Assembly (NCBI GenBank): GCA_023137195.1
Contig: JAGLPV010000001.1
Coordinates: 106,242 to 170,241, forward strand
Direction of reading: 5' to 3'
Origin: Candidatus Aenigmatarchaeota archaeon
GTDB lineage: Archaea; EX4484-52
DNA: 64,000 bases
Below the pieces are notes generated by a model that made no database searches, was not told where the DNA came from, and saw nothing but the letters and a program-made list of their open reading frames with translations. Position numbers and translations under genes: made by a program. Below, in pieces: positions 4,096 to 22,029 of this stretch. Within the stretch, counting starts at the first letter, position 1, and each line of letters starts with the position of its first letter.

Positions 4096-4869
4096 TCAAG
4101 TCATCTTATACTCCCCTTCAAGCTGCATATCCGGGTAAACAACAAATCCTTTCTTATCCACAATCTTCGCCTCGACAATCCTCCGGTCTATGTCCTCGCC
4201 CCGCATCTTCAAAACCTCAATTCCACGAGCCCTGGTACCATTAGAATACACGATATTATACAAAACAATAATCCCGTCCGATAAAAAACTTACAGCTCCA
4301 CCAGTATCAGATATATTCAGACCGATATGCGCAGGATTGCATGTTTCCCTTATCAAAAAGGAAGTGGTATTGTTCTTCTCTAAATTCCTAAACAACTGCT
4401 CCATGTAGACCCTGAACCTTGCCTCTTCCCCGCTGAAGGCAGAGGCGATTGAACTTAAGGAGTCGATGCATACTATATCCGGGTCAAAGCCTTTTGGAAT
4501 CAACACAGGCTGGATATCAATCAACAGCTCTCTTTTTGCCTCTGACAATAATGCTTCTACGCTCCTTGCTACGTCAAGAGCGTTGAATCTTCTCAACATC
4601 AATGTCCCTTTTCTTTCATAGACTTCCGGGGTCCAGCCGAATGCTTTCATATGACTTCTTAGCCGGTCTTCACGCTCTTCAAAACTCATGTACAATACTT
4701 TCTTTCCTTTTTTGCACAGGTTGTTTGCCAGGTGGAGGCAAAACAATGTTTTGCCTGAGCCGGGTCCTCCTTCTACTAAAATAGAATTTCCTTCAGGAAC
4801 TCCTTCCTGAAATAGTTCGTCAAATCCTCTTATGTCTGTCTTAAACTTGCCTTTGGTTTCTTTTTCCAT
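4096..4869 (-). CDS. KaiC-like single-domain RecA-superfamily ATPase (COG0467/RAD55-type)
   Basis: 257 aa. GFDELFQEGVPEGNSILVEGGPGSGKTLFCLHLA (Walker A), VLYMSFEE, Walker B IVCIDSL, and the C-terminal motif LKMRG. The ATG at 4867-4869 is 5 nt downstream of the giant-gene stop (4875-4877), with AGGTGA immediately upstream. Confidence 0.8.
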   Translation of the reverse strand: MEKETKGKFKTDIRGFDELFQEGVPEGNSILVEGGPGSGKTLFCLHLANNLCKKGKKVLYMSFEEREDRLRSHMKAFGWTPEVYERKGTLMLRRFNALDVARSVEALLSEAKRELLIDIQPVLIPKGFDPDIVCIDSLSSIASAFSGEEARFRVYMEQLFRNLEKNNTTSFLIRETCNPAHIGLNISDTGGAVSFLSDGIIVLYNIVYSNGTRARGIEVLKMRGEDIDRRIVEAKIVDKKGFVVYPDMQLEGEYKMT

Positions 4870-4874
4870 CTAAT

Positions 4875-7800
4875 TCACCTTTTACTTTTCATTGCTAACT
4901 CTTCGTTGAGCAGGGGGATTTGTCGTTTGATGTCTCTCATTATCTCCCCGTATTTTTTTATCCTGACGTGGTATGTGGTCTCGTTTAGTTTTTTTTCCTC
5001 GAAATATTCTCTTTGTGTTTCTGCTACCAGTTTCCTGACTGAACTCCATCTTGTGTTCAGGTTTTTTATTTTTTTTCTTATTATCCAGCATTCTATTCTT
5101 GTGCGTCCTAAGGCTGCGATTGTGGAAAGTAGGACGATTATGAAAATGATTTTGTTCCGGTTCTGCTTCAGGAAAGTGATTATGTTTCTTGAGGTTGCGT
5201 CGTAGAATGCTTTTACTTTTGTCTCTATTGCCTGCATTTCTGAGATTTTTTCGTAGGTCTTGTCTATTTGTTTGAGGCATTCCTCGTATCGCTCTGCCTC
5301 AAACTCGGTTTTGGAGGTGTTGTATACTTCCCAGACAGGGGTCTTGTTTATGTCCTCTGTCTGGATTATTGTGGATTCTAAGGCGTTTAGTTCGTCCAAT
5401 GCCCTGAAAGCTTTTTTCTTTAGGTCGTGGAGTTCATTGATTTTTTCATGGATTAGTGAATAGTCCGGGCTGCCGCCGGACTCTTCCAGGGCTAATTGAG
5501 CTTCGTATATTTGTTTGGCAAGAAAGAGAGTGTCGTTGTATCTTGTTGCAGGGAGGTTCTTGTTCAGGAGTTCATTCATGTCTTCTCCTGCCTGGAGAAG
5601 ATTGTTGTTTGTGTTGAAAGCGTCATCGGAGATACAGAATCCTGCCTGGGGCAGGAGTAAGAGAATAAATAATACGGCTGTTAACCTGGATTTCTTTTCG
5701 GCTCTTCTTGCCTTTAGAGAGGCAATCCTCTCTTCTACTTCCACCAGCCGCTCTGAATAGCTTTTCATCCTGTTTTCGTATATCCTTGTTTCCAGCTTGC
5801 CTGAGTTTAGGTAGAGTCTCTGGGACTCTTTTATTATGTTCAGGATCTTTTCTCTTTCTTCTGTTAGCCTGTCGTCTTCTTTCCTGAAGAATTTGAAGAG
5901 GTTTGCCTGAATAGTTTCGTATTTTATGCTTTCCTGGATTGCTTTGCTCATGCGCTTTTCGTACTGCATGAGGGTTTGCATGTATTCCCTCATGCTTAGT
6001 TTGCCTTCTATGAAGCATTCTCTTTGTGCTTCTTTGATTAGGCTTAGCAGGACGGATTCTTCTTTTTTCAGGTTTTTTAGTTTCCTGGTTATGAGGTCTA
6101 GTTTCAGTGCGAGGAAGCTGAAGAAGGATAATATTGTTATTAATATTGTTGCAATTATTATTTTGCCCCAGTTGTTTTTTGCAAATGCTACTATGTTGAA
6201 TATGCCGACTGTTTCTAATGCGTAGGTTACTTTTGCATCTTCTGCCCTCTTTAGGGCAGAGACAAAGTCGCCCCTGTCTAATGCTGCCTGGCTTAGGAGC
6301 AGTAGTCTTTTTGTCTTTGAGACGTCAATTCCGTCGTGTTCTGCCTGTGTTATTTTTTGGCGTATTTCATTTAAGAGTTCCAGGCAGTCAAATGCCTGCT
6401 GTTTGGTTTGCTGCATCTGTGCGTGTAGGTCTCTTGCTATCTCGTAGTCTTTTGTTTTTAAGGTGTTGTTTGCTGTGTTTAGGGATTCTCTGAGGTCTTT
6501 TGTGTTCAGGTTCTTCTGCTCTATCTCCCTGATGATTGCTTCTATCTTTTCAATGTAGTCTATTGCTTCCTGCCTGGAGATTTCCAGGATTATTAGCTTG
6601 ATTGTCCTTGTCTCTTTCATGTCTGTGGTAGGAGTGGTGTTGATTATTCCTTCAATTGTGAATATTAGCTTGTATTCTCCTCTTGTGAAATATTCCGGGG
6701 CTTCCAGGAATATTGTAAAGTTTTGGCTGTTGTTTTGGGGGATTAGGTCTGTGCGGGTCGGGTGGATTCTTAAGTATTTTGATAAAAATCCCTTGATGGA
6801 GATTGTGGTGTTTATTAATGCTCCTTCGAATGGGTTTTCTACTTCCAGGTTGAATTGCTGCTGGCGTCCTCTTAATAGTTCGTAGGTTGCATCGGTTTGG
6901 AATAGTTTTTGTCTTTGCTTTTCTGTTGCTGTTATTATTACGGAGAAGGGTGAGCCACCTCCACTACTGCTTCCGCCGGAACTACTGCCTGTGTAATGCT
7001 CTTCTATTATTGTTGTCGGTGCTCCGTCAACAGGGATGCAGATTTCCTTTATGTTCTGGGTCTGGAGGCAGTTGGAGCAGTTGGTGTAGAGATAGAAGCA
7101 ATAGCTTCCTGTCGCTACACCTGAGCCTACATATATTGTGAAAACCTGGGTCTTGTAATTTATGCCTGATGTGCAGCTGAAAAGTGATTCTGTGTTTTCT
7201 TCCGGGGTTGCTGAAACTCCTGATGGGAGGTTCATGAGGAAGATGGATAGATTTACTGCGTCCTCGTTTCCTATGTTTGTTATGCCGGTTGTTATCTGCT
7301 GGGAGTTTCCGGCATCGGTTGTTGCTATGCTTGATATTCCTGTGAATTCAAAGTATGGACCGGCAGGGATTATCTTGATGGAGGGGGTCAGGGTTGTGCT
7401 GTAGACGTAGTCTTCGTTGTTCTCTGTGCAGCTTAGGCAGCTGCAGTCTACAGGGATGGATATGCTTACGCTGTAGTCTGGTAAGTCTCCCGGGATTAGG
7501 GGGGTTATGTTTATCTGTCTTGTTTTTGTTGTTGGAGGGGATTCTAATATTATGTTTGATGTGTTGTAGTTAAAGAGCATGTCCTTGGATGAGGTAATGT
7601 ATGTTGAATTCGGGAGGGCGCAGGTGTAGTTGAAGTCGCCGGTGTTGTTGAATGTTATTGTTCCCAGGGTTGCGTTCTCGTTGATTATTGCGGTTTCCGG
7701 GGTGTTGGTTATGGAGATGTTTATTGTGTAGTCGTTCCATATTTGTAGGATATTATTTTGTGATTGGATTGTGTTGTTGTAGGTGTCGTTGGTCCATATG

Positions 7801-10800
7801 TAGTAGGTGTAGTTTCCCTTGGACTGGTTGGTTAGGGTTGTGTTGTACAGGGTTGTGCCCTGCATTGGTGTTGATGTCCAGTTGGTTGTGTTGTATGTGT
7901 CGTTTCTTTGGTAGTATAGTAAGACTGTGTGGATTGCTAAGTTGTCTGTTATGTTTGTGTGGATTGTTATGTTCATGTTTGGGTCTATGCCTGCTATAGT
8001 TAGCGGGGTGGTGGTTATTGAGTTTATTGTCGGTTTTCTGGTGTCGTTGGAGGTTATGTTTATTATTGCCTGGTTGGCGTTATGTAGCCAGTCGTAGGCT
8101 GTCAGGTTGAAGAGTATTAGTCCGGCGGGGAGGTTGGTGTAGTTGAATTGTGTGGTGTTGCCTGTGAAGGTTATGTTTGTTGTTTGGGTTTGTAGTACTG
8201 AGAATGTTGTGTTTAGGGTTGCGTTTGATAAGCCGTTGATTGACCAGTTTAGGGAATTATCTGTCCATTGTAATGTGCAGGAGATGTTGTCTGCCTGTGA
8301 TGCGGATATGGTTGAGTTTGTTGCATTTAGTATTATGGTTGTATTGGATGTGTTGTTGTGAGTGATGTTGCAGGTTGCGTTTATTAGTTGAGGCGGGGTT
8401 GAGTCTGTTGTCAGTGTTCTTGTTGTTGATGTGTTTGTGTCGTAGGTGTCTGTCACTGAGACATTCCAGTGGTGGATTCCGTCGGGGAGTAGGAGTGAGT
8501 GGGTTGTGTTTGTTGTTAGAGTGGTGTTGTGGATTGTTAGGTTGAATGTCTTGTTGTCGTTGTCGGGGTCGCTGCTGGTCCAGGAGAATTGTATTGTTTC
8601 GTTTGAGGAGTTTGTGTTGTTTGGTGGAGAGGTTAATGTTATTGTCGGGATTTGGTTTGGGACTGTTGTTTGTATTGTTGTGTTTGTGCAGTTGGAGCCT
8701 CCCGAGATGTTGCCGTCGCAGATGTTAATAGTTATGTTTATGTTCTGGTTCGGGGTCAGCCAGCCCCCGCTGATGTTGGCTGAGCAATAGGCTTGGGTGT
8801 TTGTTCCGTATGGGATGTTTAAGGTTCCTGTTAGGTTTGACTGGTTGAGTTGGTTGCTGTAGTGGACTGTGCAGTTTATTAGGTCTGTGTCTGTGTCGTG
8901 GTCTGTGGCTATGGTTGAGGTCATTATTCTATGTTCTGGGTTGTTTTGGATTTGCGGTGTGGTTAGAGATGGAGGGTAGTTGATGATTGTTGTGTTTTGC
9001 GTGCAGACCTGATCGGAGACCAGGTTGTACTGGTCTTTTATGTTTAGGCAGAAACTCCAGTTCTGGGCTTTTGTTGTGTACTGGTATTCTAAAGAGGCGT
9101 TGGTTAGGTTTGTTTGGGAGAGGATTCTGGTGTCGTTTAGGATGTCGTTTAAGTACCATTTTATTGTTGAGGAGATTATGTCGTCTCCTTCGGGTTCGTT
9201 GTAATTCCACAGGGCGGTTAGGTCCAGTGCTGTTGTTGTTGAGGGTAAGGTGGTGTTTGTTATGTTTGGTTTTTCATTTGGTATGGTTGGGTAAATAGTT
9301 CCGGTGTTGGTTGTTGCACCCATGTTGTCTTCGAAGACAAAATATATTGATACAGAACTGCCTACGGAGTAGTGGGATGTGTTGATTTCTTTTGAGCAGT
9401 TTACTGTTTGGTTGGATTGTGTTAATAGTTCTGTGGTGTTGCTGCCGTAGTGGATTTGGCAGCTGGTTATCTGGCCGTCAGGGTCTGTTGCGTTGGCGCT
9501 TGCTGTGAAGGCGTGTCTGTTTGGAGTGTTTTGGTATAGTGGTCCGTTTGTTGTTGGGTTTTGGTTGCCGCTTACGAAAGAGCCGCTTGAGGTTGTGGTT
9601 TGGTAGGGGTCTGCTGTTGTTAAAGTCCAGTCGTAGGAGGTGTTGGCATATACTGTGAAGTTTACTTTCCACGCGGTTGATTTTGTTGCGTTCTGGTTGG
9701 TCATTATGTCGATTTGCTGGGTGTAGGTTAGGGTTGTGTTTAGGATTGTTGTGTTTGCTGCTGTGGTATAGGTTATGTTTGTTGTGTTGGTTAGGTAGGA
9801 CTGGGGGGTGGGTATGGTTGTAGGGATGGTTTGGTTTGTGAATTGTAAGGTAGTTAGGGGGTTGTTGTTTATTTTTACTGTTGTTGATTGGTTTGAGTAG
9901 TAGAGGATTTTGGTATTGTTTAAGGTTATTGTGCCGTTTTCTAATGTGCAGGTTATGTTGTTGGTGGATTGTAAAGGGTGTGTGTAGTTGTAGGTTGTGT
10001 TCTGGGGGGTTGGGATTAGGTCTATCTGGTTGTTGTTTAGGTATATTCTTAGGTTTGTTGCGTTTACTGCATTTGCGAAGGTTATGTTTATTGTTGCGTT
10101 GTTTAGCGGGTTCGGGGTGGTTAGTTGATGGGTTGCGTTTGTTGTGTTGGTTATGGTGTGTTGGGTTGAGTTTATTGTCTGTGTTTTTTGGTTTAGGTAG
10201 TAGATTGTTAGGTTTGCCTGTCCTGTGGATTTTGGGTATAATGTTTGTAGTTCGTGTGTTTTGGTGGTGTTGTCTGTGTTTATAGTTGTTGTGTTTTGGG
10301 TTGTTTTTGTTCCGTTTTCTATGTATACTGTGAAATTTGCGTATATTATGTTGTCGTTTTCGTTGTCTGTTATGTTGGCAGTTAGGTTTATGTTGTCTGT
10401 TGGGGTTGCGGGTTCTGTGCTGACTTCAACTATGGTTGGGTTTGAGTTCATCCTGAACCATAGGTTTGATTCATTGAAGGCGGAGCATATCCACGGGTCG
10501 CAGGCTTTTAGCTGGAAGGTGTAGTTTTTGCCGTCTTCTAAGGCCACGCGGTGGCCTAAGGTCATTTGTCCTTCGTTGTTGAAGTTGGTTGTTGTTATGT
10601 TGTTGTCGTATTGGTATGATGCGCCCTCTTCTTTTACCCATGCTTCTATTCTTAGGGTGTCGTTCTCGTCGTCTGATGGGTTGGTCCAGTTTATTTTTGG
10701 ATTTGGAGTGATTACATGTAGTGTGTCGTTGAAAGCGTCGTTTATTATTAGGTTTAGGTTGGATGGTGTGGATGGTATCTTGTTTGGGATTTGCTGGCTT

Positions 10801-13800
10801 ATCTGAGAGGAGTTGGATTTGTCGAAAGTGTCGTCTGCTTCGACTATAATGTCTATCCAGTCTCCGACGTTGAAGTTTGAGCAGGTTGTTGTGTTGACTT
10901 CTAAGCTGGATGTGCCGGAGCTTATTATTGAGGAGGGGATCATATTTACAGAGCATGATGAGCCGCTTGTTGTGTCGGTTAGGTATGCTTTGCAACTGAA
11001 TGTGTCTGAGTCAGGGTCGTTTGCAGAGGCGGTGAGGTTGAAGGCATGTTTGTTGTTGATTGTGTTAGCTCCAGTGCTGCTGAATGTTACTGCGTGGTTT
11101 GGAAGGGTGTTGTTTATGTGGGTTGTGATGTTGGTTGTGTCGGAGGTGTCTTTGAATTCTATGTATGTTTCTATGTTGTTTTTGATGTCGTTGTCGAGGT
11201 ATCCTGTTGAATCTGAGATTGTGCTTGTGCAGTTGCAGGAACTGCTGTCACAGGCTAAGGTTCCTGTGAAATAATGCCATCCTGCGCTTGGGTCTGTAGG
11301 GTTGTAATAGTAAATTCTGCATGAAGAAATATCAGATGCTCCGTCAGGGTCAGTGGCATTGCCGATAAGAGTAAAGCAATGTCCGTTGGAACAGTTTGTG
11401 ACTGTAAAGGAATAGATTGCAGGGGCATAATTTGGCAGGTAATATTCCTGTGTATTTGAACTTCTTTCTTTGGTGTAAGTATCTGTAAAGGAAATACTGA
11501 AATTTGCTGTTGTTCCTAAAATTATGTCAGATTCATTAATCAATAAAGTGCATTTTGTGGGAGTAGATGTATTGTTCAGAATTCCGTATTTATTACTCCA
11601 CTGGCAGTCGGAACAGTGGACATAGCAGTTCGTAAATTTGCCCGAACCGCCCGTGTGGGTTGCATTTGCAGAGATGTTGAACTTGTGTCCTGTGATGTCT
11701 TCAAAGTTCAAATCTGTAATGAGGATAGTGTTTGTATGGACTGTTCTTTCTGTATCTGAGCTCCAGTTCATGGTGTCATTTGCCCATAAATTGAATTTGT
11801 GGGTGTGGTTTGAAACAGAGAGGTTGTTGTAGTATCCCCAACTTGATGAAGTGTATTTTTTTAGTTCGGATTGGTAATGCATTTTTATTTCGTCTGCTGT
11901 TAGGGAATGATTGTAGATTTTTACTTCGTCTATTGTTCCGTTGAAATTTTTAATATTTGTACTCCATCTGCCGAGGTATAGTGTTCCATCATTTTCGTTT
12001 ATTGTTCCTGTTGTGTCTTCACAGATTACTTCATCACTATTTTTGTATGCACATTTACTGGAGCCGTTGTAAGTAAATGCCAGATGAATCCATTCATCTA
12101 TTGATAAAACATTATTGACATTAAGGGTATCATCTGAAAGACCGTAAGTTCTCCAGAAAATATGACCTGTCGTACTCCATCCATATTCTATATAATAACT
12201 GCCCACCTTATTTAAGATTAATTTAGAATCTCCCGATAAATCTAAATTATTTGGTTTGATCCACAACAAAATAGTTTGTTCCTGTAAATCCAGACTATCC
12301 TCTGTCCCACAATCAACATAATCATCCACTCCATCAAATTTCAGACCAGTGCCGAACTTTCCATCAATATATTTTGCCCTGATTCTGCTTATGCTCCCTA
12401 ATACATCGGTCAAATTGTAAGTTTGAGTTGTTGTAATTCCTCCTGCCTGAGGAGTTCCTGCATTGGCGTTGTTGTAATAGATGTAATAGTTTGAGTCTGA
12501 ATTTCCGCTGTTAATCTGGGCTTCTGCGTTGAACCATACAATAGTTTCTGAAGAGTTGAAAGAAGTTGTATTTGTTCTGTTAATTTCACTTACTCCGTGG
12601 ACAATTCTTAAATCAGTTCCGTTTGTTAATAGTTTTCCGGCAGAGACTAAAGAGGCGGTGTTTATTGTTATGTTTATTGGCTCGCCTATTGATAGGGCTG
12701 ATGCATTGTTGTTTGTTATGGTGAGTTTCTTCCTGTATTTGTAGTCTTCATTCCACCAGTTAGAGCCGGTTACGATTGTTCCGTCATTTGCGTATTTGGA
12801 GATGTCTACCGCCTTTGTGCTGTTTTCTCCTATTGCTGAATTGTTGTTGAAGTTTAATGCCAGGACCAAAGAATTGTCGTGTAGAGTTGAATTTATCCAT
12901 GTTGTCCCATTGTGCCAGTTGAATTTTAATGTGTCTAAATGGTACTCGTCTATCGTTAGATTTAGTTCTGTGTAGTTTTGCGTTCGGTATGTGTTGTTAG
13001 CTGGGGTTGGGTCTTTCCATGAATAAGATGGTGGTGTTGCATCTATTGTCAGGGTTCTTGTTTGGGTTTGGTTTATATTTCCTGCCTTATCCTGGGCATA
13101 AGCAGTGTAAGTATATTCTCCGTCGGATAAACCTGTGAAGTTGTGGTATAGTCTGTGTAGTCCTGCGTCGTATGTGGCGTTTATTTCTTCTATCGAGATG
13201 GCACGGTTGTAGAGTTTTACATCATCGATTGTGCCGTTGAAAGCACCGTAAACATCAAATCCCTGTGATGCACTTATATCTGCGGGAGCGCCACTTGTAG
13301 AAGCTCTTAATATACCATCAACATACAATCTCTGATATGTCATTGTCTTGACATAAGTTATATGATGGAATTGATTTACGTTTAGAGAACCTGTGCACCA
13401 TGCATGGTTACCCGAACTTGCTGAACGGAACCGGATTCCATTATTACAATATCTATCTCTATAACATGCACGCATATGTCCGCTGGAATAGGAATTAAAT
13501 ACCAACACACATGAAACAATATCGCCTGATGCAGGGTATTGTGGTATTGCTTCATGTTTCTTGTACCAAAAGGAATAGGTGAAATCATTCGAAAGGTCAA
13601 GGAAATTAGCTGTATTCATTGAATCATCTGTCCCGTCAAATGCAAGAGCATTTCCGAATTTACTATTTGAAGTCAAACCAGAACAATCACCAGTGCAGTT
13701 GTCTATTCCTGTATTCATATTTGCTGTCGTAGCGTTGTTTCCATGACTTGAAAAGTCCTGTACTATTGTACCTAAATCTTCGTCCATTCTCAACCAGGCA

Positions 13801-16800
13801 ACCAAAGAATTGTTCCAGTCAATTAAAGTTGTTGTGTCGCTTGAATCAGTTATTGTTGTATTTACATAACTATAATCCCTGGTAACTATAGCCTCGTTAC
13901 TATCTGTCTGATTAACGAACTCTATATGAGGAGGAGTTGTGTCTATGTTAATAGTTCTTGTTGCTGAATTGATATTGCTTGCTGAATCCTGGGTGTATGT
14001 GGTGTATGTGTATGTTCCGTCGTTTAGGTTTGTGAAGTTGCGGTATAATCTGTGGAGTCCTGCGTTGTAGGAGGCGTTTATTTCTTCTGGTGATAAAATC
14101 CGGTTCCATATTTTTATTTCATCAATTGTACCATTGAAATAATATACCCATTTACCGACTTCTAAATCAGCACTTATATGATTATGTGTTATATTCGAGT
14201 ACCATTGATTGTTACAAGCATCATCCTCTCCATCAATATAAAGACATAATCTCTCATTTGGTTTGTCAACAACACCAACAACATGGTGCCATTCACCAAA
14301 ACTTATTAATCTTGACCTGTATGAATATCCAAAAGTACTATTGTCCGCGACGGTTAAATGAATATCATTTGCGGACCAACCTCTTGTAACAAGACCATAT
14401 TGCGTTGAACCCCAACTACCTCCTGTTCTTGCTACAATTCCCGAACTTTCAACATTACTTTCCCTGTAAATCCATGCTTCTATTGTAAGTTCATTTACTA
14501 TGTCTAAATTATCGCCCATGTTGACATAATCATTGTTTCCGTCAAACATTAGTCCTTTTCCGAATCTTGATGAAGATGTCCAGCCGGAACTTCCGTTGTT
14601 AATTCCAGAACTCATGTTTGTTAAAGTTCCGTTGTTGTTATATGTAGAACTGTCTTCAGTAGTTAGTCCGGTTCCTTCATTAAATCTCCACCAGCCGACC
14701 AATGAATTATTCCAGTCGATAAAGGCAGTGATATTATTTGTGTCTGTTGTTGTTGTGTTAATATAAGTATAATTCCTGCTAACATAAGCATTGTCTGTGT
14801 CTGTTGGATTAACGTATGTGATAGTAGGATTTATTGTATCTATAGTTACTGTTCTGGTGGCTGAAATAATATTCCCTACTGAATCCTGCGAATATGTAGT
14901 GTAAGTATAAGTTCCTTCTAATAAATTTGTAAAGTTGTGATAGAGTCGGTATAATCCTGTGTTGTAGGATGCATTGATTTCTTCCGGACCCAATACGCGA
15001 TTGTGTATTTTTACTTCATCTATTGTCCCGTTGAAAAAAGAAGTAATTCCGCTTACATCGTGATATCCGGCACCCATTATTATTTTACCATTGGTGGCTT
15101 GAGGATTTGGCTGATTGTCGTCCTGGACAACCAAACTCCCATTCAAATAAAACATTACGGTTTCACCATTTCTTATTATAGTAATATAGTACCATTCATC
15201 TGTGTTAATGCCTCTGCTACCAACAAGCCCCTCGTTGCTACAACCGGATTCGGATACAGAAACGGATGCACCGTCAGTATATATTCTGGGGTTATAGAAA
15301 CAATCTCCGGCATTGCCTCTGCGAAAAACTTCATCACTGCCGGTTGTGTTATCTACTTTAAACCAGAAGGAAATTGTATATATTGTATCTTCAGAACTAA
15401 CAGAACTACAATCAACATAATCATTTGCTCCGTCAAATATGATTGCGTTGCTAAACTTGCCTACTGTTGTCCTGCCGCTTGTGCCGTTGTCTATTCCTGT
15501 ATTCATATCAGTCATCGTCCCGTTGTTGCCATTGCCTGAAAAGTCTTCTACATTAGTGCCATTATTTTCATTCATTCTCCACCATGCAACCAATGAGTTG
15601 TTCCAGTCTATGAAGGATGTTATATTGTTTGTATCTGTTATTGTTGCATTAATGTATGTGTAATTTCTGCTGATGTAAATATTGTCTGCATCGGTTGGGG
15701 CAGTATATTCTATTGACGGGTTTGTTGTATCTATTGTTATTGTTCTTGTCTGGGTCTGGTTTATATTTCCTGCCATGTCCTGTGTGTATGCTGTGTATGT
15801 GTAGATGCCATCGTTTAGATTTGTGAAATTATGGTATAGTCTGTATGACCCTGTGTTGAAATCTGCTCTTACATCTACTGAGTTCAAAGCCATTTTCCAT
15901 ATCTTGATTTCATCTATTGTGCCGTTGAAATAATCCATTGATGCGCTCCACCCGAGAATGAAACTGTCGTATGTCAGGTTTTCTTTTGGAGTTATCCACT
16001 GCCAGCCGGCTTCATTTCCATTTACATAAAAATACATCTTTGTTGTGTTGTATACTGCCGCGAGATGAACAAATTCATCACTTGTCTGCGGTTTTGTTAT
16101 AATCCTGTCTATTGATGGAGTTATATATCTCAAGTGGTATTCGGAGTTTCTCAGGGCAAGATATGTATAAACCGGGCTGGTTGCTTCGCGGCTGGAATAT
16201 ATTGATTTTTGTTCACTAAATACATCTGATGTCCATAAAGGGTGTTTTATCCACAGAGATACTGTGTATCCTGTGGTCACAAAATTTGTAAATATATCTG
16301 ACCTGTTGAGTTTATCATTCCCGTCAAAACTTCTGGCTCCACCGAACTTTCCTGCGTTGGTGTATGTTGAACCGCTGTTGTCCGGGTTGTTGCTATATGT
16401 AGAATGGTCGGATAAATCAGAGCTGTTGTCGAACCGCCACCAGATGATTAAGGAATTGTTCCAGTCTATGAATGAGGATATATTATTTGTGTCTGTTGTT
16501 GTTGCGTTTATGTATGTGTAGTCTCTGCTTACGTAAGCGTTGTTTGTGTCGGTTGGATTGATGTAGGAGATAGTTGGATTTATTGTGTCTATTGTTATTG
16601 TTCTTGTTTGGGTTTGGTTTATGTTTCCGGCTGAGTCCTGGGCGTAAGTGGTGTATGTGTGGGTTCCGTCGTTTAGGTCTGTGAAGTTGTGGTAAAGGCG
16701 GTTGAGTCCTGCGTTGTAGGAGGCGTTGATTTCTTCCTCAGATAATGCCCTGTTGTAGATACGGACTTCGTCTATTGTACCATTCCACAGTCTATAATCA

Positions 16801-19800
16801 GATAAATAATATATTCCTCTCCCGATACGCATTGCTTCGCCCACATGATTATACATTGATGTTGTAGCTATAACAACATCGCCCTTATTACCATCAACAT
16901 ACACTATAATATGTGTTCCGTTCCACACACCAACTAAGTGATACCAAGTGTTTAATGATGGAGAGAGTTGAGTATATTTTGCTATACGCCAATTGCTATC
17001 TCCATCTTTTGTTTGTAGTTTAAACCAATCATTACCTACATCATATCTTAATTCAATGCTTCTGCCTCCATCTGCTTTACAAACAACACACTGGTCATCA
17101 CCTTTACTTATCATATATGCCCATGCTTCTATTGTAAAACTATTAAATGTGCTTAATTCTAAGTTGTCTATTGGCAAACCAACATAATCATTCACGCCGT
17201 CAAACTGCAAGGCGTTGCCGTATTTTCCGGATGATGTCCGACCGCTTGTTCCATTATTTATGCCGGTATTCATGCCTGCTAATGTGCCAATATTGCTATG
17301 TCCTGAAAAGTCTTCTGCTGTTGTGTCGCTTTCTTCATTCATTCTCCACCAGCCGACTAAGGAGTTGTTCCAGTCTATGAAAGCAGTTATGTTGTTTGTG
17401 TCGCTTGTTGTTGTGTTTATATAAGTATAATTCCTGCTGACGTAAACATTGTCTGTATCTGTCGGGTCGACGTATTTTATTGATGGATTTGTTGTGTCGA
17501 TTGTCAGTGTTCTTGTTGTTGAGTTTATATTTCCTGCTGAGTCTTGTGCGTATGCTGTGTAAGAATAAGTTCCATCTGTAAGAGAGGTGAAGTTGTGGTA
17601 GAGTCTGTATAAACCTGCATTGTAGGATGCGTTGATTTCTTCAGGGCTTAGGGCGCGGTTGTAGATTCGGAATTCATCTATTGAGCCATTGAATGGGACT
17701 GCTGATGTTGGTCTTGCACCAATATCCCAATTTAAAGAATAATTTATTAGACTCCAATCTCCCGTTGTTCCGCTTCCATTGACATAAGTATCATCATATA
17801 TAAAATAGACATCTGGATTCCTTAAAACCACACCTACAAAATGCCATTCATTTGCTGGTATGTTCGCTGCATAACTAGACATCATGCCTCCTTTCAGCCA
17901 TAAATCATTTGTATTCTCTACTTGGAATTCGATACCTCTGGAAGGCGTCGATATAAAGTTAGATATGATAGATCCCTCTGACGATGTTTTGAACGTTTCA
18001 GGTGTTTTTATCCAAGCCGTAATTGTTAGATTTGAACCATAAAAATTGGCTGTATTTAATGGTAAGTTCATATAATCATTATCGCCGTCAAACTCTAAAG
18101 CCGAGCCGAATTTACCTGATTCGTAAACAGGGCAATTGGTGCAGGTTCCGTTGTTGCCGTAACTGCTGTAATCTTTGAAGAATGTTGTATTTTCTCCGGG
18201 TTCCTGGTTGAATCTCCACCAGCCTACTAAGGAATTGTTCCAGTCCATGAAGGCAGTTATGTTGTTTGTGTCTGAGGTTGTTGTGTTTATGTAAGCGTAG
18301 TTGTCTGAAATGTATTTGTTGTTGCTTGGAGTAGGTGAGGTAAAACTTAGTTGCGGTGGTGTGGTGTCGAGAGTGCCGTTGCTTACGAATATGTCCCAAT
18401 TTTGGCTTGCTGTTGGTCCGCCTTCCTGATTTGGCAGACTGTCGAAATAGTCTTTTTTTAGGTTGTATTGGTTTGATATTTCTGTTGCATTTAATGCCCT
18501 GTTCCAGATTTTTACCTCGTCGATTGTGCCGTTGAAATATCTATTATCTGATGAATACCATCTTCCAATTCTAACTATATCAACTAAATTAACTAATGAA
18601 CCCGTCGCACTTTGCGATTTCTCCAAAATACCATTTACATAAAGAATATGTTTCGAGCCGTTATAAGTTGTTACTAAATGATACCACTCCTTAACTAAAG
18701 GCGTTGTTGGATTGTTGTCCATTTTATTTGCTTGAGATGTATTTCTTACAGAACATGCAAAACAATCATTTCCAATATCATACCATAACATAAACTTTCC
18801 GCTACTACCCGAATCGGTAATTACCACCATATCTTGACTTTTTTTATCTAAATTTACCCATGCACTGAACGTAATATCCTCTGTTACATCCAAACTCGCA
18901 TCATTCCCACAATCAACATAATCATCAACACCGTCAAAGTCCAGAGCATTCCCAAACTTGCTCGAAATTGTCCAGTCTGGCGGGTAGCCGTACAAAGTTC
19001 CTGTATTGCCCTTACCACTGCTGTCTGTTGCTAGGTCTGATGTTCCTCTTTCATCAAATTTCGTGTGCAAGACCAGTCCTTCACTGCTTATATTGGTTTC
19101 GAGTCCTGCCAAGCCGCGTTGGTAGTCCCAAGATATTTCGGTTGCGTTTAGGGTTCGGTTGTAAAGCATAATGTCATCAGCCATTCCTTTTGTGTATCTA
19201 TTATAATGATTCATTATAACAATCGGGTCAGTATTAACGCCATTATTAGTATCATTTATGCTTATTGCTGTTGCATCAGAAGAACCATCTGTATATAGAT
19301 ATAATTTATCCTCTGTCGCATTTTTAACAACAGCTATATGATGCCAGGTATCATCACAAACTACAGAAGTAGATTCTATGCTGTTGGATACTGTTGAATT
19401 ATAAGAAAGACCAAATGAATGATGTCCATTATCTCTAACATTCCAAAGGTAAGAAGGGTATAATATGCTTGTATCGTGATAACCTTTTGTAATCAATCCA
19501 TCGTTTGTATTAGTATCTGGTATTTTAATCCACATCATGAAAGTAAACGAAATACCTGTAGGAAATTCCAAATTACTATTATCTATTATACTAACATAAT
19601 CATTCGTTCCGTCAAAGTTCAAAGCACCGCCAATCTGTCCGGTAGTCCATTTGGTTTGTCCGCCTGTAGATGGGTTTAAAGTTCCGTCATTGTTATTCAA
19701 AGAATAGTTTGCACGGTCTTTTGCTGTTGCGCCTTGATTTTCGTTGAAATTTAAGCATAATACCTGTCCTGTGATGTTGCCGGATTCACAGGTGTCAACC

Positions 19801-21896
19801 AAGACAGAATAGTCGCTTGTGTCTTTTAATGTGTAATTGTCGGTGTTTCCTGTATAATAATCATACCATATGTTCTGGATGTTGCCTGGATTCCAGCCTA
19901 AGTATTCTGTTAGGTTGAAACTCAATAAATCGTATTGGCTCATGGTATATGTGTTGCTTATTCTGATTCTGGTCAGGTTCTGCTCGTTCAAATATTTGTT
20001 TGTTATGCTGATGGTTTCATGTCCGAACCAGTTTGTATCTGTAGTGTTGAAGGTTATGTTTTTGTATTTGGTTAATCCGTTCGAGTAGTGGTCTGTTATT
20101 TCTGTAGGAGTTAATACCCTGTTCCAGACTGAAACGGAGTCTATTGTGCCGTTGAACTCTCTACCGCCGCTTGGGTCTGCACCAATAGCGATACCTGTTC
20201 CTGTTGTTGCAGGTTGTGTCGTCCCTGTTGCAAGAACTGTGTCTACGTACAGTGCGACAGCAGAAGTATTCCATGTCATTACTACATTATGCCATGACGT
20301 AGTATCTGTAAACGTTTCACTTTTTCTAGTATAAGAACCATCATATACTCCTGCTCTTATTGAGTCATATGCTACTTGAAGTAACATTCTATCATATGTC
20401 TTCTTTGTTGAAGAAAAAAGTGTTCCTTCATATCCTGAGGTTCTATCTGCTTTTAACCATACAGAAACAGTCCATGACGTTGTGTTTGATAATTCGCTTG
20501 ATAAACTTGATGAATTAGTTCCGCAATCAACATAATCCCCGCTACCATCAAAATAAAGACTATGACCAGTATTATTGGGTGTATCAGAACTCCATTTTGT
20601 ATTTATGAGCGTCCCGTTATTACTCTTACCTGACTCATCATACAAAGTCGTGCCTGTGGCATAGTCCATACTATATGAAGCTACCAAACCATTGTTGTTT
20701 CTCACTCCTTTTGTGGTTACATAAGTAGGTGTGAATTGTATCTCGGTATCGACCTCCGGCACATTCACGATTAAACTATTATTTGTGTGGCTGACTGTAT
20801 CGTAAGTTATTGCCGAGCCGCTGATGTCTGTGTAGTTTGTGACGTAATTGCTTGCTGTTGTATTGTATAATGCTGAGACTTCATCTGAACTTAAAGCACG
20901 GTTGTAAATTCTAACATCGTCTATTGTGCCGTTGAAAGAATATACACTTTCGCCAAAATAGATATTATTAGAATATGTTATGGTATTGCCAACCCATGAA
21001 TCATCAATATTTTTTGAAACCGAACCAGTAATATTTATGCCATTCATAAATAGGTTCATTTGTTGGTTAGGTATATCAATCCTTAATACATAATGATACC
21101 AACGGTCGTCTGTATAACTAAGTGTAGTTTCATATTGTTTTGTGCCAGACACACGTACTTGTGTAGTTATCGTACTTTCTCCTGTATTAAAGTATGCTCT
21201 TATTTGGTGGTCTGTAGAACCAGTGTAGGTGTTCTCAAAAATTTCATGTCTTCCTGTATCGTTAGTCTTAAACCAGAAAGATATAGTTATTTCCGATTCG
21301 CCAGACTGTTTCCAATTCGTATCAACATAATCATCCAAACCATCAAAATAGACTCCATTGCTCAAATTTCCGTTAGTAGTCCACCCGGAACAATTCCCTG
21401 TGCAGTTATCAGTTCCAATATTCATATTAGTCAAAGCGCCATGATTATTATTTCCTGAATAATCCCATGCTTTGGCATCAGTTGTCTTGTTCCCTTTATC
21501 AAAACTCCACCAACCGACAAGTCCGGAAGTCAAATCATAAGAGGAATTTGTAGCACCTAGGAACAGCTTCCCTTCTGACACATCCAGGGAAGCCGTATAC
21601 ATCGTATCATTAGAAGTGGAATTCTGCACAACTTTTAAATCCGTGCTTAATGCAGCATCAATCCATGTTGTGGAAACAGATAAAGAAGCAGAGAATAATA
21701 CAAATAAAATGAATAATGAAAAGAAGAAAAATGCGTTCAATAAAAATTTTTGCAATTGATTTTTTAAAAAGGATGTTGCAACAAAATTTTTTAATGTTGT
21801 GTCTAAACTTATACGCAAAATGCAGTTTACACACAATGTTGAAAACCTGTTTTTCGAGTAAAACGGGCTGTTTTTGAGTGCTTTTTCAAGTGTCAT
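4875..21896 (-). CDS. Giant secreted/membrane-anchored surface protein (5,673 aa): 11 LamG-type lectin domains, DUF2341-like module, Ig-like modules, N/T-rich region, coiled-coil C-terminus with 3 TM segments
   Basis: A single stop-free 17-kb frame in AT-rich DNA. N-terminal hydrophobic segment FFFFSLFILFVLFSASLSVS. Eleven FDGxxDY(V) LamG cores with the ending FNGTIDEVRIYNRALS (first at ~21321-21350, last at ~12310-12340). WNEDYKYRKKLTITN ... YYIYYNN DUF2341-like module at ~12400-12760. Modules with the motif DPDG..SC..Y. Thr/Asn/Gln/Pro-rich stretch at ~7400-10500. TM segments at ~6085-6200, ~5625-5690 and ~5100-5155. The exact start is uncertain: a TTG near 21740, just before the hydrophobic segment, is an alternative. 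Confidence 0.9.
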   Translation of the reverse strand: MTLEKALKNSPFYSKNRFSTLCVNCILRISLDTTLKNFVATSFLKNQLQKFLLNAFFFFSLFILFVLFSASLSVSTTWIDAALSTDLKVVQNSTSNDTMYTASLDVSEGKLFLGATNSSYDLTSGLVGWWSFDKGNKTTDAKAWDYSGNNNHGALTNMNIGTDNCTGNCSGWTTNGNLSNGVYFDGLDDYVDTNWKQSGESEITISFWFKTNDTGRHEIFENTYTGSTDHQIRAYFNTGESTITTQVRVSGTKQYETTLSYTDDRWYHYVLRIDIPNQQMNLFMNGINITGSVSKNIDDSWVGNTITYSNNIYFGESVYSFNGTIDDVRIYNRALSSDEVSALYNTTASNYVTNYTDISGSAITYDTVSHTNNSLIVNVPEVDTEIQFTPTYVTTKGVRNNNGLVASYSMDYATGTTLYDESGKSNNGTLINTKWSSDTPNNTGHSLYFDGSGDYVDCGTNSSSLSSELSNTTSWTVSVWLKADRTSGYEGTLFSSTKKTYDRMLLQVAYDSIRAGVYDGSYTRKSETFTDTTSWHNVVMTWNTSAVALYVDTVLATGTTQPATTGTGIAIGADPSGGREFNGTIDSVSVWNRVLTPTEITDHYSNGLTKYKNITFNTTDTNWFGHETISITNKYLNEQNLTRIRISNTYTMSQYDLLSFNLTEYLGWNPGNIQNIWYDYYTGNTDNYTLKDTSDYSVLVDTCESGNITGQVLCLNFNENQGATAKDRANYSLNNNDGTLNPSTGGQTKWTTGQIGGALNFDGTNDYVSIIDNSNLEFPTGISFTFMMWIKIPDTNTNDGLITKGYHDTSILYPSYLWNVRDNGHHSFGLSYNSTVSNSIESTSVVCDDTWHHIAVVKNATEDKLYLYTDGSSDATAISINDTNNGVNTDPIVIMNHYNRYTKGMADDIMLYNRTLNATEISWDYQRGLAGLETNISSEGLVLHTKFDERGTSDLATDSSGKGNTGTLYGYPPDWTISSKFGNALDFDGVDDYVDCGNDASLDVTEDITFSAWVNLDKKSQDMVVITDSGSSGKFMLWYDIGNDCFACSVRNTSQANKMDNNPTTPLVKEWYHLVTTYNGSKHILYVNGILEKSQSATGSLVNLVDIVRIGRWYSSDNRYFNGTIDEVKIWNRALNATEISNQYNLKKDYFDSLPNQEGGPTASQNWDIFVSNGTLDTTPPQLSFTSPTPSNNKYISDNYAYINTTTSDTNNITAFMDWNNSLVGWWRFNQEPGENTTFFKDYSSYGNNGTCTNCPVYESGKFGSALEFDGDNDYMNLPLNTANFYGSNLTITAWIKTPETFKTSSEGSIISNFISTPSRGIEFQVENTNDLWLKGGMMSSYAANIPANEWHFVGVVLRNPDVYFIYDDTYVNGSGTTGDWSLINYSLNWDIGARPTSAVPFNGSIDEFRIYNRALSPEEINASYNAGLYRLYHNFTSLTDGTYSYTAYAQDSAGNINSTTRTLTIDTTNPSIKYVDPTDTDNVYVSRNYTYINTTTSDTNNITAFIDWNNSLVGWWRMNEESDTTAEDFSGHSNIGTLAGMNTGINNGTSGRTSSGKYGNALQFDGVNDYVGLPIDNLELSTFNSFTIEAWAYMISKGDDQCVVCKADGGRSIELRYDVGNDWFKLQTKDGDSNWRIAKYTQLSPSLNTWYHLVGVWNGTHIIVYVDGNKGDVVIATTSMYNHVGEAMRIGRGIYYLSDYRLWNGTIDEVRIYNRALSEEEINASYNAGLNRLYHNFTDLNDGTHTYTTYAQDSAGNINQTQTRTITIDTINPTISYINPTDTNNAYVSRDYTYINATTTDTNNISSFIDWNNSLIIWWRFDNSSDLSDHSTYSNNPDNSGSTYTNAGKFGGARSFDGNDKLNRSDIFTNFVTTGYTVSLWIKHPLWTSDVFSEQKSIYSSREATSPVYTYLALRNSEYHLRYITPSIDRIITKPQTSDEFVHLAAVYNTTKMYFYVNGNEAGWQWITPKENLTYDSFILGWSASMDYFNGTIDEIKIWKMALNSVDVRADFNTGSYRLYHNFTNLNDGIYTYTAYTQDMAGNINQTQTRTITIDTTNPSIEYTAPTDADNIYISRNYTYINATITDTNNITSFIDWNNSLVAWWRMNENNGTNVEDFSGNGNNGTMTDMNTGIDNGTSGRTTVGKFSNAIIFDGANDYVDCSSVSSEDTIYTISFWFKVDNTTGSDEVFRRGNAGDCFYNPRIYTDGASVSVSESGCSNEGLVGSRGINTDEWYYITIIRNGETVMFYLNGSLVVQDDNQPNPQATNGKIIMGAGYHDVSGITSFFNGTIDEVKIHNRVLGPEEINASYNTGLYRLYHNFTNLLEGTYTYTTYSQDSVGNIISATRTVTIDTINPTITYVNPTDTDNAYVSRNYTYINTTTTDTNNITAFIDWNNSLVGWWRFNEGTGLTTEDSSTYNNNGTLTNMSSGINNGSSGWTSSSRFGKGLMFDGNNDYVNMGDNLDIVNELTIEAWIYRESNVESSGIVARTGGSWGSTQYGLVTRGWSANDIHLTVADNSTFGYSYRSRLISFGEWHHVVGVVDKPNERLCLYIDGEDDACNNQWYSNITHNHISADLEVGKWVYYFNGTIDEIKIWNRILSPEEINASYNAGLHRLYRNFTNLNDGTYTYTTYTQDSASNINSATRTINIDTTPPHIEFVNQTDSNEAIVTRDYSYVNTTITDSSDTTTLIDWNNSLVAWLRMDEDLGTIVQDFSSHGNNATTANMNTGIDNCTGDCSGLTSNSKFGNALAFDGTDDSMNTANFLDLSNDFTYSFWYKKHEAIPQYPASGDIVSCVLVFNSYSSGHMRACYRDRYCNNGIRFRSASSGNHAWCTGSLNVNQFHHITYVKTMTYQRLYVDGILRASTSGAPADISASQGFDVYGAFNGTIDDVKLYNRAISIEEINATYDAGLHRLYHNFTGLSDGEYTYTAYAQDKAGNINQTQTRTLTIDATPPSYSWKDPTPANNTYRTQNYTELNLTIDEYHLDTLKFNWHNGTTWINSTLHDNSLVLALNFNNNSAIGENSTKAVDISKYANDGTIVTGSNWWNEDYKYRKKLTITNNNASALSIGEPINITINTASLVSAGKLLTNGTDLRIVHGVSEINRTNTTSFNSSETIVWFNAEAQINSGNSDSNYYIYYNNANAGTPQAGGITTTQTYNLTDVLGSISRIRAKYIDGKFGTGLKFDGVDDYVDCGTEDSLDLQEQTILLWIKPNNLDLSGDSKLILNKVGSYYIEYGWSTTGHIFWRTYGLSDDTLNVNNVLSIDEWIHLAFTYNGSSKCAYKNSDEVICEDTTGTINENDGTLYLGRWSTNIKNFNGTIDEVKIYNHSLTADEIKMHYQSELKKYTSSSWGYYNNLSVSNHTHKFNLWANDTMNWSSDTERTVHTNTILITDLNFEDITGHKFNISANATHTGGSGKFTNCYVHCSDCQWSNKYGILNNTSTPTKCTLLINESDIILGTTANFSISFTDTYTKERSSNTQEYYLPNYAPAIYSFTVTNCSNGHCFTLIGNATDPDGASDISSCRIYYYNPTDPSAGWHYFTGTLACDSSSCNCTSTISDSTGYLDNDIKNNIETYIEFKDTSDTTNITTHINNTLPNHAVTFSSTGANTINNKHAFNLTASANDPDSDTFSCKAYLTDTTSGSSCSVNMIPSSIISSGTSSLEVNTTTCSNFNVGDWIDIIVEADDTFDKSNSSQISQQIPNKIPSTPSNLNLIINDAFNDTLHVITPNPKINWTNPSDDENDTLRIEAWVKEEGASYQYDNNITTTNFNNEGQMTLGHRVALEDGKNYTFQLKACDPWICSAFNESNLWFRMNSNPTIVEVSTEPATPTDNINLTANITDNENDNIIYANFTVYIENGTKTTQNTTTINTDNTTKTHELQTLYPKSTGQANLTIYYLNQKTQTINSTQHTITNTTNATHQLTTPNPLNNATINITFANAVNATNLRIYLNNNQIDLIPTPQNTTYNYTHPLQSTNNITCTLENGTITLNNTKILYYSNQSTTVKINNNPLTTLQFTNQTIPTTIPTPQSYLTNTTNITYTTAANTTILNTTLTYTQQIDIMTNQNATKSTAWKVNFTVYANTSYDWTLTTADPYQTTTSSGSFVSGNQNPTTNGPLYQNTPNRHAFTASANATDPDGQITSCQIHYGSNTTELLTQSNQTVNCSKEINTSHYSVGSSVSIYFVFEDNMGATTNTGTIYPTIPNEKPNITNTTLPSTTTALDLTALWNYNEPEGDDIISSTIKWYLNDILNDTRILSQTNLTNASLEYQYTTKAQNWSFCLNIKDQYNLVSDQVCTQNTTIINYPPSLTTPQIQNNPEHRIMTSTIATDHDTDTDLINCTVHYSNQLNQSNLTGTLNIPYGTNTQAYCSANISGGWLTPNQNINITINICDGNISGGSNCTNTTIQTTVPNQIPTITLTSPPNNTNSSNETIQFSWTSSDPDNDNKTFNLTIHNTTLTTNTTHSLLLPDGIHHWNVSVTDTYDTNTSTTRTLTTDSTPPQLINATCNITHNNTSNTTIILNATNSTISASQADNISCTLQWTDNSLNWSINGLSNATLNTTFSVLQTQTTNITFTGNTTQFNYTNLPAGLILFNLTAYDWLHNANQAIINITSNDTRKPTINSITTTPLTIAGIDPNMNITIHTNITDNLAIHTVLLYYQRNDTYNTTNWTSTPMQGTTLYNTTLTNQSKGNYTYYIWTNDTYNNTIQSQNNILQIWNDYTINISITNTPETAIINENATLGTITFNNTGDFNYTCALPNSTYITSSKDMLFNYNTSNIILESPPTTKTRQINITPLIPGDLPDYSVSISIPVDCSCLSCTENNEDYVYSTTLTPSIKIIPAGPYFEFTGISSIATTDAGNSQQITTGITNIGNEDAVNLSIFLMNLPSGVSATPEENTESLFSCTSGINYKTQVFTIYVGSGVATGSYCFYLYTNCSNCLQTQNIKEICIPVDGAPTTIIEEHYTGSSSGGSSSGGGSPFSVIITATEKQRQKLFQTDATYELLRGRQQQFNLEVENPFEGALINTTISIKGFLSKYLRIHPTRTDLIPQNNSQNFTIFLEAPEYFTRGEYKLIFTIEGIINTTPTTDMKETRTIKLIILEISRQEAIDYIEKIEAIIREIEQKNLNTKDLRESLNTANNTLKTKDYEIARDLHAQMQQTKQQAFDCLELLNEIRQKITQAEHDGIDVSKTKRLLLLSQAALDRGDFVSALKRAEDAKVTYALETVGIFNIVAFAKNNWGKIIIATILITILSFFSFLALKLDLITRKLKNLKKEESVLLSLIKEAQRECFIEGKLSMREYMQTLMQYEKRMSKAIQESIKYETIQANLFKFFRKEDDRLTEEREKILNIIKESQRLYLNSGKLETRIYENRMKSYSERLVEVEERIASLKARRAEKKSRLTAVLFILLLLPQAGFCISDDAFNTNNNLLQAGEDMNELLNKNLPATRYNDTLFLAKQIYEAQLALEESGGSPDYSLIHEKINELHDLKKKAFRALDELNALESTIIQTEDINKTPVWEVYNTSKTEFEAERYEECLKQIDKTYEKISEMQAIETKVKAFYDATSRNIITFLKQNRNKIIFIIVLLSTIAALGRTRIECWIIRKKIKNLNTRWSSVRKLVAETQREYFEEKKLNETTYHVRIKKYGEIMRDIKRQIPLLNEELAMKSKR
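13020..18370 (-). repeat. Intragenic tandem array: six ~850-910-bp units (LamG + beta-sandwich modules) inside the giant gene
   Basis: The coding motif (F/L)IDWNNSL(V/I)(G/A/I)W(W/L)R recurs at ~13800, 14700, 15600, 16450, 17360 and 18230. Each unit ends ...EEINASYNAGLxRLYHNFTxLxDGTYTYT(A/T)YxQDSAGNINxTxRTxTIDTxxP. The antisense shadow ORFs at 14533, 15439, 16264 and 17215 share ELFQSMK..ILFVSVVV. Confidence 0.85.
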
Positions 21897-22029
21897 ATTA
21901 ATTGTATAATTATACTAATAAATAGTCATTAACCTATATAAATTTTTAGATTTTTGTGCTACAGGAGACCCCTTTTATCGTAATCAAAAAGAGATTGAAC
22001 CTGTTTTATTGTTGTGCAAGAAAAAAATC

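Follow-up and report, generated by a model that had tools for sequence, protein, structure and literature searches.

The membrane anchor of a giant archaeal surface protein appears to have absorbed a downstream paralogous gene and forms a genomic unit with a KaiC-like ATPase

Introduction

The current view of DPANN archaea is that they live in attachment to other cells; how are the huge proteins on their surfaces anchored and controlled? The question is raised by a locus of Candidatus Aenigmatarchaeota archaeon (EX4484-52), in a stretch of 64,000 nucleotides (the window; assembly GCA_023137195.1, contig JAGLPV010000001.1, positions 106,242 to 170,241 of the forward strand), where one very long open reading frame (ORF) encodes a giant surface protein. 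The C-terminus of this protein holds three transmembrane (TM) segments, the second of which looks like a signal peptide placed in mid-protein, and three copies of one motif. How did a signal peptide come to lie there, and why does the motif recur? The comparisons presented here indicate that the C-terminus is an in-frame fusion of a membrane anchor with a smaller paralogous gene, and that anchor, partner and a neighbouring KaiC-like ATPase belong together in the genome. What is new at this locus is the fusion, the history of its junction and the evidence that fusions of this kind recur.

Layout of the anchor region

The C-terminal region is made up of two related modules. Module A, the end of the large protein proper, is a beta-sandwich followed by a five-helix stalk, a TM segment (TM1) and two cytoplasmic hairpins. 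Module B, the former partner gene, is a headless paralogue of module A with a signal peptide, a five-helix stalk, a TM segment and one hairpin. The features, with positions in the window and residues of the giant protein, are:

4875-21896 (-), giant surface-protein ORF, 5,673 codons; a single ORF
6951-6989 (-), Gly/Ser linker GSSSGGSSSGGGS, residues 4970-4982, preceding the conserved anchor module; read from the sequence
6585-6890 (-), membrane-proximal beta-sandwich with a PapD/ASH/MSP-like Ig fold, approximately residues 5003-5104; AlphaFold2 strands
6174-6575 (-), stalk A, extracellular five-helix region, approximately residues 5108-5241; AlphaFold2 helices with a predicted local distance difference test score (pLDDT) of 85-96; paralogue of stalk B
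6105-6161 (-), TM1, residues 5246-5264, running out to in; Kyte-Doolittle value 2.69, flanking Lys plus Arg 2 on the N-terminal and 6 on the C-terminal side
5901-6098 (-), cytoplasmic hairpin 1 (motif copy 1), approximately residues 5267-5332, its first helix continuing TM1; profile and AlphaFold2
5706-5879 (-), cytoplasmic hairpin 2 (motif copy 2), approximately residues 5340-5397; profile and AlphaFold2
5697-5699 (-), fusion point, a GAA codon (Glu5400) at the position of the partner's start Met; comparison with free-standing homologues and a fused relative of the same genus
5634-5696 (-), TM2, the putative signal peptide of the absorbed partner gene (KKSR-LTAVLFILLLL-PQAGFC); alignment with 44 partner N-termini
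5163-5627 (-), stalk B, extracellular five-helix partner domain, residues 5424-5578; AlphaFold2, pLDDT 92-98
5094-5150 (-), TM3, residues 5583-5601, running out to in; Kyte-Doolittle, AlphaFold2 and charge
4893-5078 (-), cytoplasmic hairpin 3 (motif copy 3), residues 5607-5668; profile match 4e-32, AlphaFold2 helix-turn-helix continuing TM3

A first-pass annotation of the window had outlined much of this layout, and it stands up well: every sequence that it quoted, the linker included, lies where it was placed, the three TM segments coincide with Kyte-Doolittle peaks, and the beta-sandwich and helical regions are borne out by AlphaFold2. In the whole giant protein such peaks exceed 1.5 in four places only, which are an N-terminal leader (residues 51-69), TM1, TM2 (peak at residues 5405-5423, window 5628-5684) and TM3. 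The charged segment between TM1 and TM2, put at about 130 residues, measures 134-140, and the tail, put at 74, measures 72-76; the second ectodomain is helical as described but, at about 157 residues, somewhat shorter than the 180 or so proposed. Adherence to the positive-inside rule, also claimed at the outset, is seen in the net charges, which are +10 for the TM1-TM2 loop and +9 for the tail against -2 for stalk A and -9 for stalk B. N-glycosylation sequons (N-x-S/T), of which the giant ectodomain carries 235, number none in the loop, three in stalk B and one in the tail. A predicted topology of out-TM1-in-TM2-out-TM3-in fits both the charge and the sequon bias.

The anchor has little resemblance to curated families. 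In the part comprising stalks, TM segments and hairpins the best Pfam match falls far below the cut-off (E 0.028), a profile search of the PDB gives a best E of 0.08 and Foldseek a best E of 0.1 with TM-scores of 0.17-0.25, while no NCBIfam model matches the C-terminal 708 residues. Foldseek matches in the PDB cover only the beta-sandwich (E about 3e-4). Anchoring by the PGF-CTERM/archaeosortase route likewise has no NCBIfam match in those 708 residues, and the protein ends in a 72-residue helical hairpin, not in a short basic tail.

Modules A and B are separate genes in most relatives

Three long relatives share the anchor, two of which, P0003 and P0004, end a few residues past motif 2. In both cases the ORF that follows on the contig overlaps the end of the large gene by 4 nt. 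Its product of 291-303 residues has a Met of its own and a signal peptide of classical type, and continues with a helical ectodomain, a TM segment and the motif. The same unfused layout is found in at least 20 genome loci, where the large protein ends after motif 2 (within a few residues of hairpin 2) and the partner ORF has 270-336 residues. The region from TM2 onwards thus exists in relatives as a separate ORF, an arrangement that the first-pass annotation had envisaged together with a fusion of formerly separate genes, and that reading is strongly supported by the comparison with relatives.

A HMMER search with residues 5101-5673, carried through exhaustively, retrieved 1,419 representative proteins, among which large proteins match query positions 1 to approximately 304 at their C-termini and proteins of 270-365 residues match positions of approximately 306-573; only a handful match both parts. 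Module profiles were then used to scan the window, the metagenome loci L002-L004 and 27 loci taken from named genomes, whose labels include Aenigmatarchaeota, Woesearchaeota, Pacearchaeota and Nanoarchaeota. The giant protein matches the 'beta' (115 bits) and 'modA' (388 bits) profiles within residues 4996-5397 and the 'modB' profile (380 bits) at residues 5401-5673. The module-A layout recurs at 20 other loci, in a total of 21 large ORFs, as well as in two fused proteins in L004 and L005; every large relative is matched by the 'beta' profile, and large relatives carry equivalent linkers rich in Gly, Ser and Thr. Free-standing partner genes number 28, in 27 further loci, 21 of them with a large protein ending in module A directly upstream; altogether 31 occurrences of the partner were examined, of which 28 are free-standing. 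In 11 cases the end of the large gene and the start of the partner share 4 nt (ATGA).

The junction itself was compared between the window, L005 and L037. In the nearest unfused relative the large protein ends in EARKAIRRRLIK and a stop codon, with an AAAATGA overlap leading into MRRLAPLL. A genome of the same genus as the window reads KANDA-MKKSSRILPV in one reading frame, and in the window the sequence is KARRA-EKKSRLTAV, the Met codon being replaced by GAA. Residues 5401-5673 align from end to end with 44 free-standing partners, KKSR-LTAV lying over their M-K-x signal peptides. The same in-frame junction is therefore present in two species of one genus that share 61% protein identity over the module, the fusion being common to both species and the internal start having been lost in the window genome. 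That the fusion is real in the window genome is, on these alignments, very probable. No in-frame ATG, GTG or TTG occurs beside TM2, the nearest being a GTG approximately 20 codons upstream, and an internal start yielding a separate partner in the window was rejected, there being no start codon beside TM2 and nothing to support the distant GTG.

Fusion is not confined to this genus. Fused forms with unrelated linkers (P0015, P0011, P0012, P0117, P0152 and P0002, the last found on 19 contigs) are scattered across the module-B tree, which requires seven changes between the fused and unfused states, at least three of them forced by supported branches; the tree thus argues for at least three independent fusions elsewhere. 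P0002 also carries an insert of approximately 250 residues with two extra TM segments, which has no detectable kinship with a 165-residue two-TM protein encoded at other loci.

Three further proteins depart from the common arrangement. P0034 (2,156 residues) presents the reverse order: residues 10-274 are a complete partner module, after which comes a giant protein with module A at its end. Apparently a partner gene was joined here to the giant gene that came after it. P0013 (903 residues), which is 98% identical to window residues of approximately 4450-5330, has an 8-residue deletion in stalk A (EAIDYIEKIEAIIREIEQ becoming EAIDIREIEQ) and an unrelated end past KAIQESI, probably a contig-end chimera or a frameshift. 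The large protein at L010:379-7830 runs approximately 577 residues past module A before its stop.

The motif as a juxtamembrane hairpin

The motif had been described as occurring three times, in cytoplasmic parts only. A profile of 62 positions, built solely from free-standing partner proteins of other genomes, matches the giant protein at exactly three sites, residues 5271-5307 (6e-5), 5343-5395 (7e-7) and 5607-5668 (4e-32). The three copies are thereby upheld; what does not survive is the linear 32-residue form of the motif, which gives way to a longer structural unit. An AlphaFold2 model of residues 5401-5673, made with 45 homologues (mean pLDDT 92.4), has a five-helix ectodomain and a TM helix that extends approximately 30 residues into the cytoplasm and turns at a conserved G-K-x-S/N-E, where a second helix returns. 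From this model the motif is predicted to be a juxtamembrane helical hairpin of about 60 residues that continues the TM helix.

Residues 5150-5316 and 5478-5653 are 28% identical (E 6e-15, composition correction off) in an alignment that spans stalk, TM segment and motif, which indicates that the whole stalk-TM-motif unit, beyond the 32-residue motif, was duplicated. In a model of the fused form (691 residues; pLDDT 81.7, predicted TM-score (pTM) 0.58), whose alignment combined fused rows with module-A rows, module A has the same layout with two hairpins and TM2 is a coil of low confidence (pLDDT below 50). Conservation within the membrane proteins is highest in the hairpins, with mean pairwise identities of 41-51% as against 31-36% in the stalks and beta-sandwich and 19-23% in the TM segments; the region of hairpin 3, at 51%, is the best-conserved part of the partners. 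Stalk B contains the conserved blocks RYNDTL, DEL.AL, ERYEE and TK.KAFYEATSR.

TM2 as an internal signal peptide

The likeness of TM2 to a signal peptide, pointed out at the outset, is confirmed by its alignment with the N-terminal signal peptides of the 44 partner proteins, by which TM2 is identified as the signal peptide that the absorbed gene brought with it. It reads KKSR, LTAVLFILLLL, P and AG-F-C followed by ISDD, and is aligned with the canonical A-x-A sites of free partners; a signal-peptidase site is possible after Cys5421. A lipobox at Cys5421 was considered and rejected, the residue at -1 being Phe and the Cys itself unconserved. Cleavage of the internal signal peptide with release of two chains, to which the retained small-residue site points, has in our estimation slightly less than an even chance.

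Internal signal peptides of polyproteins are cut by host signal peptidase, the downstream chain thereby gaining its native N-terminus. Like flavivirus polyproteins, the window protein has a signal peptide in mid-chain that would restart translocation; in those polyproteins signal peptidase does cut, whereas for the window protein cleavage is only suggested, and the latter is a cellular archaeal product of a recent gene fusion.

A conserved unit with a KaiC-like ATPase

The giant gene is followed on the same strand by a second gene:

4096-4869 (-), single-domain KaiC-like ATPase, 257 residues, starting 5 nt past the giant-gene stop; PF06745, 1.5e-42

The product matches PF06745 with 146 bits (cut-off 26.6) and counts KaiC, PH0284 and SSO2452 among its PDB relatives. 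Its Walker A sequence GGPGSGKT and catalytic FEE are intact and are conserved in 25 orthologues; at 38.2 bits it falls below the cut-off of the NCBIfam equivalog for ArlH (NF052589; 215 bits). Orthologues score 320-450 bits in most loci, with a mean pairwise identity of 65% across loci. The genes usually come in the order large protein (with module A at its end), partner, ATPase. Of 31 occurrences, 23 have the ATPase downstream of the partner at a distance of no more than 600 bp, and in three it immediately precedes the large gene. At four loci partner and ATPase occur without an adjacent giant gene. In the phylum of the window the partner is present in four of 42 genomes, and these are exactly the genomes that have an ATPase orthologue above 230 bits, the others having only paralogues at 90 bits or less; the chance of such an overlap is approximately 1 in 112,000 (hypergeometric), a value that ignores kinship and is too low, two of the four genomes being of one genus. 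By tight neighbourhood and phyletic linkage, anchor, partner and ATPase form one genomic unit. A functional association of anchor and partner with the ATPase is likely on this gene-context evidence. The suggestion in the first-pass annotation of a transmembrane signalling module is compatible with these data, although the support is indirect, coming from neighbourhood and from phyletic linkage to one KaiC-like ATPase subfamily.

In approximately ten loci a protein of 158-181 residues with two TM segments is encoded between partner and ATPase (for example at L002:17451-17948 and L003:12034-12528); these loci are labelled Woesearchaeota or Nanoarchaeota, and the protein is absent from the window. 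At L002:1-17426 two pairs of giant and partner genes lie in tandem, with partners identical over 301 residues and anchor modules that score nearly alike, which reflects either a recent duplication of the pair or an effect of repeats on assembly. The KaiC-like ORFs L029:3798-5114, L010:8861-10075 and L017:1391-2464 bear lysine-rich N-terminal extensions of low complexity, 60-190 residues long, and C-terminal tails of a similar lysine-rich kind occur in partners such as P0037 and P0064; over-extended ORF calls may account for some of these. TM segments were not found in the N-terminal extensions of KaiC-like ORFs among the approximately 175 proteins collected, only low-complexity tails rich in lysine.

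Proposed course of the fusion and its consequences

Our favoured explanation, which we hold to be probable, is that a DPANN anchor module absorbed the gene downstream of it; the pairing of stalks, docking of the ATPase and cleavage that go with it are proposed from the same comparisons. A small deletion in this genus would have removed the last codons of the large protein together with its stop, joining the two frames, and the Met codon of the partner would later have changed to Glu in the window genome. With the frames joined and Met replaced, the signal peptide would sit in mid-protein as TM2 and the motif would be seen three times. Stalks A and B, being paralogues that repeatedly fuse, would pair outside the cell, and the three basic, conserved hairpins would form a docking site for the KaiC-like ATPase in the cytoplasm, so coupling a lectin-rich adhesin to a switch driven by ATP or other nucleotides or by phosphorylation. 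Signal peptidase would cut the internal signal peptide and restore two chains, which would account for fusions arising repeatedly and being tolerated.

Direct docking of the ATPase on the hairpins is a tentative proposal, with a precedent in ArlX and ArlH, where a single-pass membrane protein holds the KaiC-like ArlH through a helical cytoplasmic domain in the crenarchaeal archaellum motor (PMC8978795). The two systems are alike in a bitopic membrane protein with a helical cytoplasmic part, which in the present case is encoded beside a single-domain KaiC-like ATPase that it is proposed to bind. They differ in that the window anchor, which matches no family, has no sequence relationship to ArlX-ArlH, the ATPase lying far below the ArlH cut-off; in that arlI and arlJ are neither annotated nor detected beside the cassette in the loci examined; and in the large extracellular stalks and giant lectin ectodomain of the window membrane proteins. 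Archaeal KaiC-like ATPases have also been proposed as hubs of signal transduction (Makarova, Galperin and Koonin 2017, as cited in PMC5847659 and PMC6393860), and as far as those citing papers describe such hubs the window neighbour is alike, being a single-domain ATPase of the KaiC family with intact motifs and a gene-context tie to membrane proteins. The DPANN-specific cls.004306 (NEQ255; PMC6393860), described as a 'secreted protein next to S-layer-like proteins', might be a candidate for the partner family. No description of a trio of giant adhesin, partner and KaiC was found in the literature searched, a search outside which the 2017 KaiC-hub paper lay.

Other anchors and giant proteins offer partial parallels. 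SlaB of Sulfolobales is a stalked S-layer anchor. It resembles the window anchor in that a large glycosylated surface protein is held by a beta domain close to the membrane, a long helical stalk and a TM segment at the C-terminus, but the window anchor is part of the giant protein and has a headless paralogue, conserved cytoplasmic hairpins and linkage to an ATPase; no sequence or fold match was found. An anchor of SlaB type has been mentioned for Nanobdella (bioRxiv 10.1101/2023.10.27.564410). The giant proteins of SPEARE type in Nanohaloarchaeota are thought to mediate contact with the host (Hamm et al. 2019, as discussed in PMC9563170 and PMC10266531); going by those discussions, the window protein is likewise a giant DPANN surface protein but is without a Pfam protease, nuclease or ATPase domain, having only LamG, Big_13 and sialidase-N-like domains, and its anchor differs.

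Several points weigh against the favoured explanation. The module is patchy, being found in four of 42 genomes of the phylum, and hence accessory and non-essential. Natural fusions of partner and KaiC do not occur among the approximately 175 proteins collected. The junction in the window genome rests on its assembly and on the relative of the same genus, stalk pairing and hairpin-ATPase contact are proposals, the pTM of the fused model is only 0.58, and the small-residue site of the window is G-F-C in place of the usual A-x-A, which most other fused forms keep in some version.

The ATPase could instead act from the inside out. A KaiC-like hexamer docked on the hairpins would then power or chaperone membrane insertion, export of the glycoprotein or its turnover, and the same linkage data apply to such an export or assembly machine. 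Hexamers of the RecA superfamily often do mechanical work, and the two-TM fourth component of 165-180 residues in approximately ten loci could belong to a membrane platform. We nevertheless think a machine of this kind unlikely: characterized single-domain KaiC-like proteins such as ArlH are switches dependent on nucleotide or phosphorylation and not translocases (PMC8978795), the ordinary N-terminal hydrophobic leader of the giant protein suits Sec export, and the cassette has no conserved polytopic protein of a channel-forming kind.

Somewhat less likely again is a passive structural anchor, in which tail and partner merely hold the giant glycoprotein, the hairpins bind to one another or to the head groups of lipids, and the KaiC-like gene has a separate regulatory role. 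A stalk and C-terminal TM segment commonly anchor archaeal surface proteins, the strongly basic hairpins could rest on the membrane, and the ATPase is linked through gene context only; on the other hand the cytoplasmic hairpins are better conserved than the extracellular and TM parts, one highly conserved ATPase subfamily occurs in the same four of 42 genomes and adjoins the partner across several DPANN lineages, and the pair of partner and ATPase persists where no giant gene is adjacent. That the genes are in truth separate, a single-nucleotide error or chimeric join having created the fusion, is very improbable, for although the source is a fragmented and incomplete assembly and the near-identical P0013 of another assembly, with its deletion and divergent end, shows that assemblies vary, the junction has neither the upstream stop nor the partner Met and would need a deletion plus a substitution, beyond any one-base error, while the junction recurs, at 61% protein identity, in an independent assembly from the same genus and other fused forms occur on many contigs.

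Returning to the absorption of a downstream gene by the anchor, the recurrent fusions can be read in the manner of a 'Rosetta stone', whereby anchor and headless paralogue would be a single heteromeric transmembrane device, present in several DPANN lineages, with three cytoplasmic hairpins that grip a ring of a dedicated KaiC-type ATPase, linking contact with a host or surface on the outside to an ATP or phosphorylation switch on the inside much as integrins do, and the version in this genus would be a polyprotein cut by signal peptidase. We put this forward as a speculation that is unlikely to hold in all its parts. At a simpler level the window protein is, as far as its sequence and neighbours tell, an archaeal surface protein with a membrane anchor and a probable coupling to a KaiC-like ATPase, built from uncurated families. 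The family, which has over 1,400 representative clusters and is modelled in neither Pfam nor NCBIfam, merits a name. Anchor, small paralogue and conserved ATPase behave as a unit in that they are adjacent and co-inherited and the first two repeatedly fuse, and they provide a concrete, testable candidate for a device coupling surface to cytoplasm in DPANN archaea. The minimal parts are two tails of 60-140 residues and one ATPase of 257, and the fused form is a natural single-chain construct for structural work.

The giant protein and its genome

The body of the giant protein contains at least 11 LamG domains (Laminin_G_3), Big_13 Ig-like domains and one sialidase-N-like lectin domain (Pfam). 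Approximately 50 residues precede its hydrophobic leader (window 21690-21896), and translation may in truth begin at a codon downstream of 21896. Genes for RadB (radB), a TrmB-like regulator and the KaiC-like ATPase neighbour the ORF. These neighbours and the named close homologues assign the source to the uncultivated DPANN archaea of Aenigmatarchaeota type. The source is a metagenome-assembled genome of 57 contigs and 1.42 Mb, 85% complete, in which the anchor module occurs once.

Base composition changes within the giant gene. Window 4096-12000, comprising the KaiC-like gene, modules A and B and approximately 1,650 C-terminal codons of the giant gene, has a G+C content of 0.40-0.44 and a G+C content at third codon positions (GC3) of 0.45-0.52; the genome mean is 0.353, and GC3 in the LamG part and the DHH gene (window 12000-23127) is 0.35-0.38. 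This shift, together with the patchy occurrence of the cassette (four of 42 genomes), suggests that the 3' half of the giant gene and the ATPase may have been acquired or exchanged as a block.

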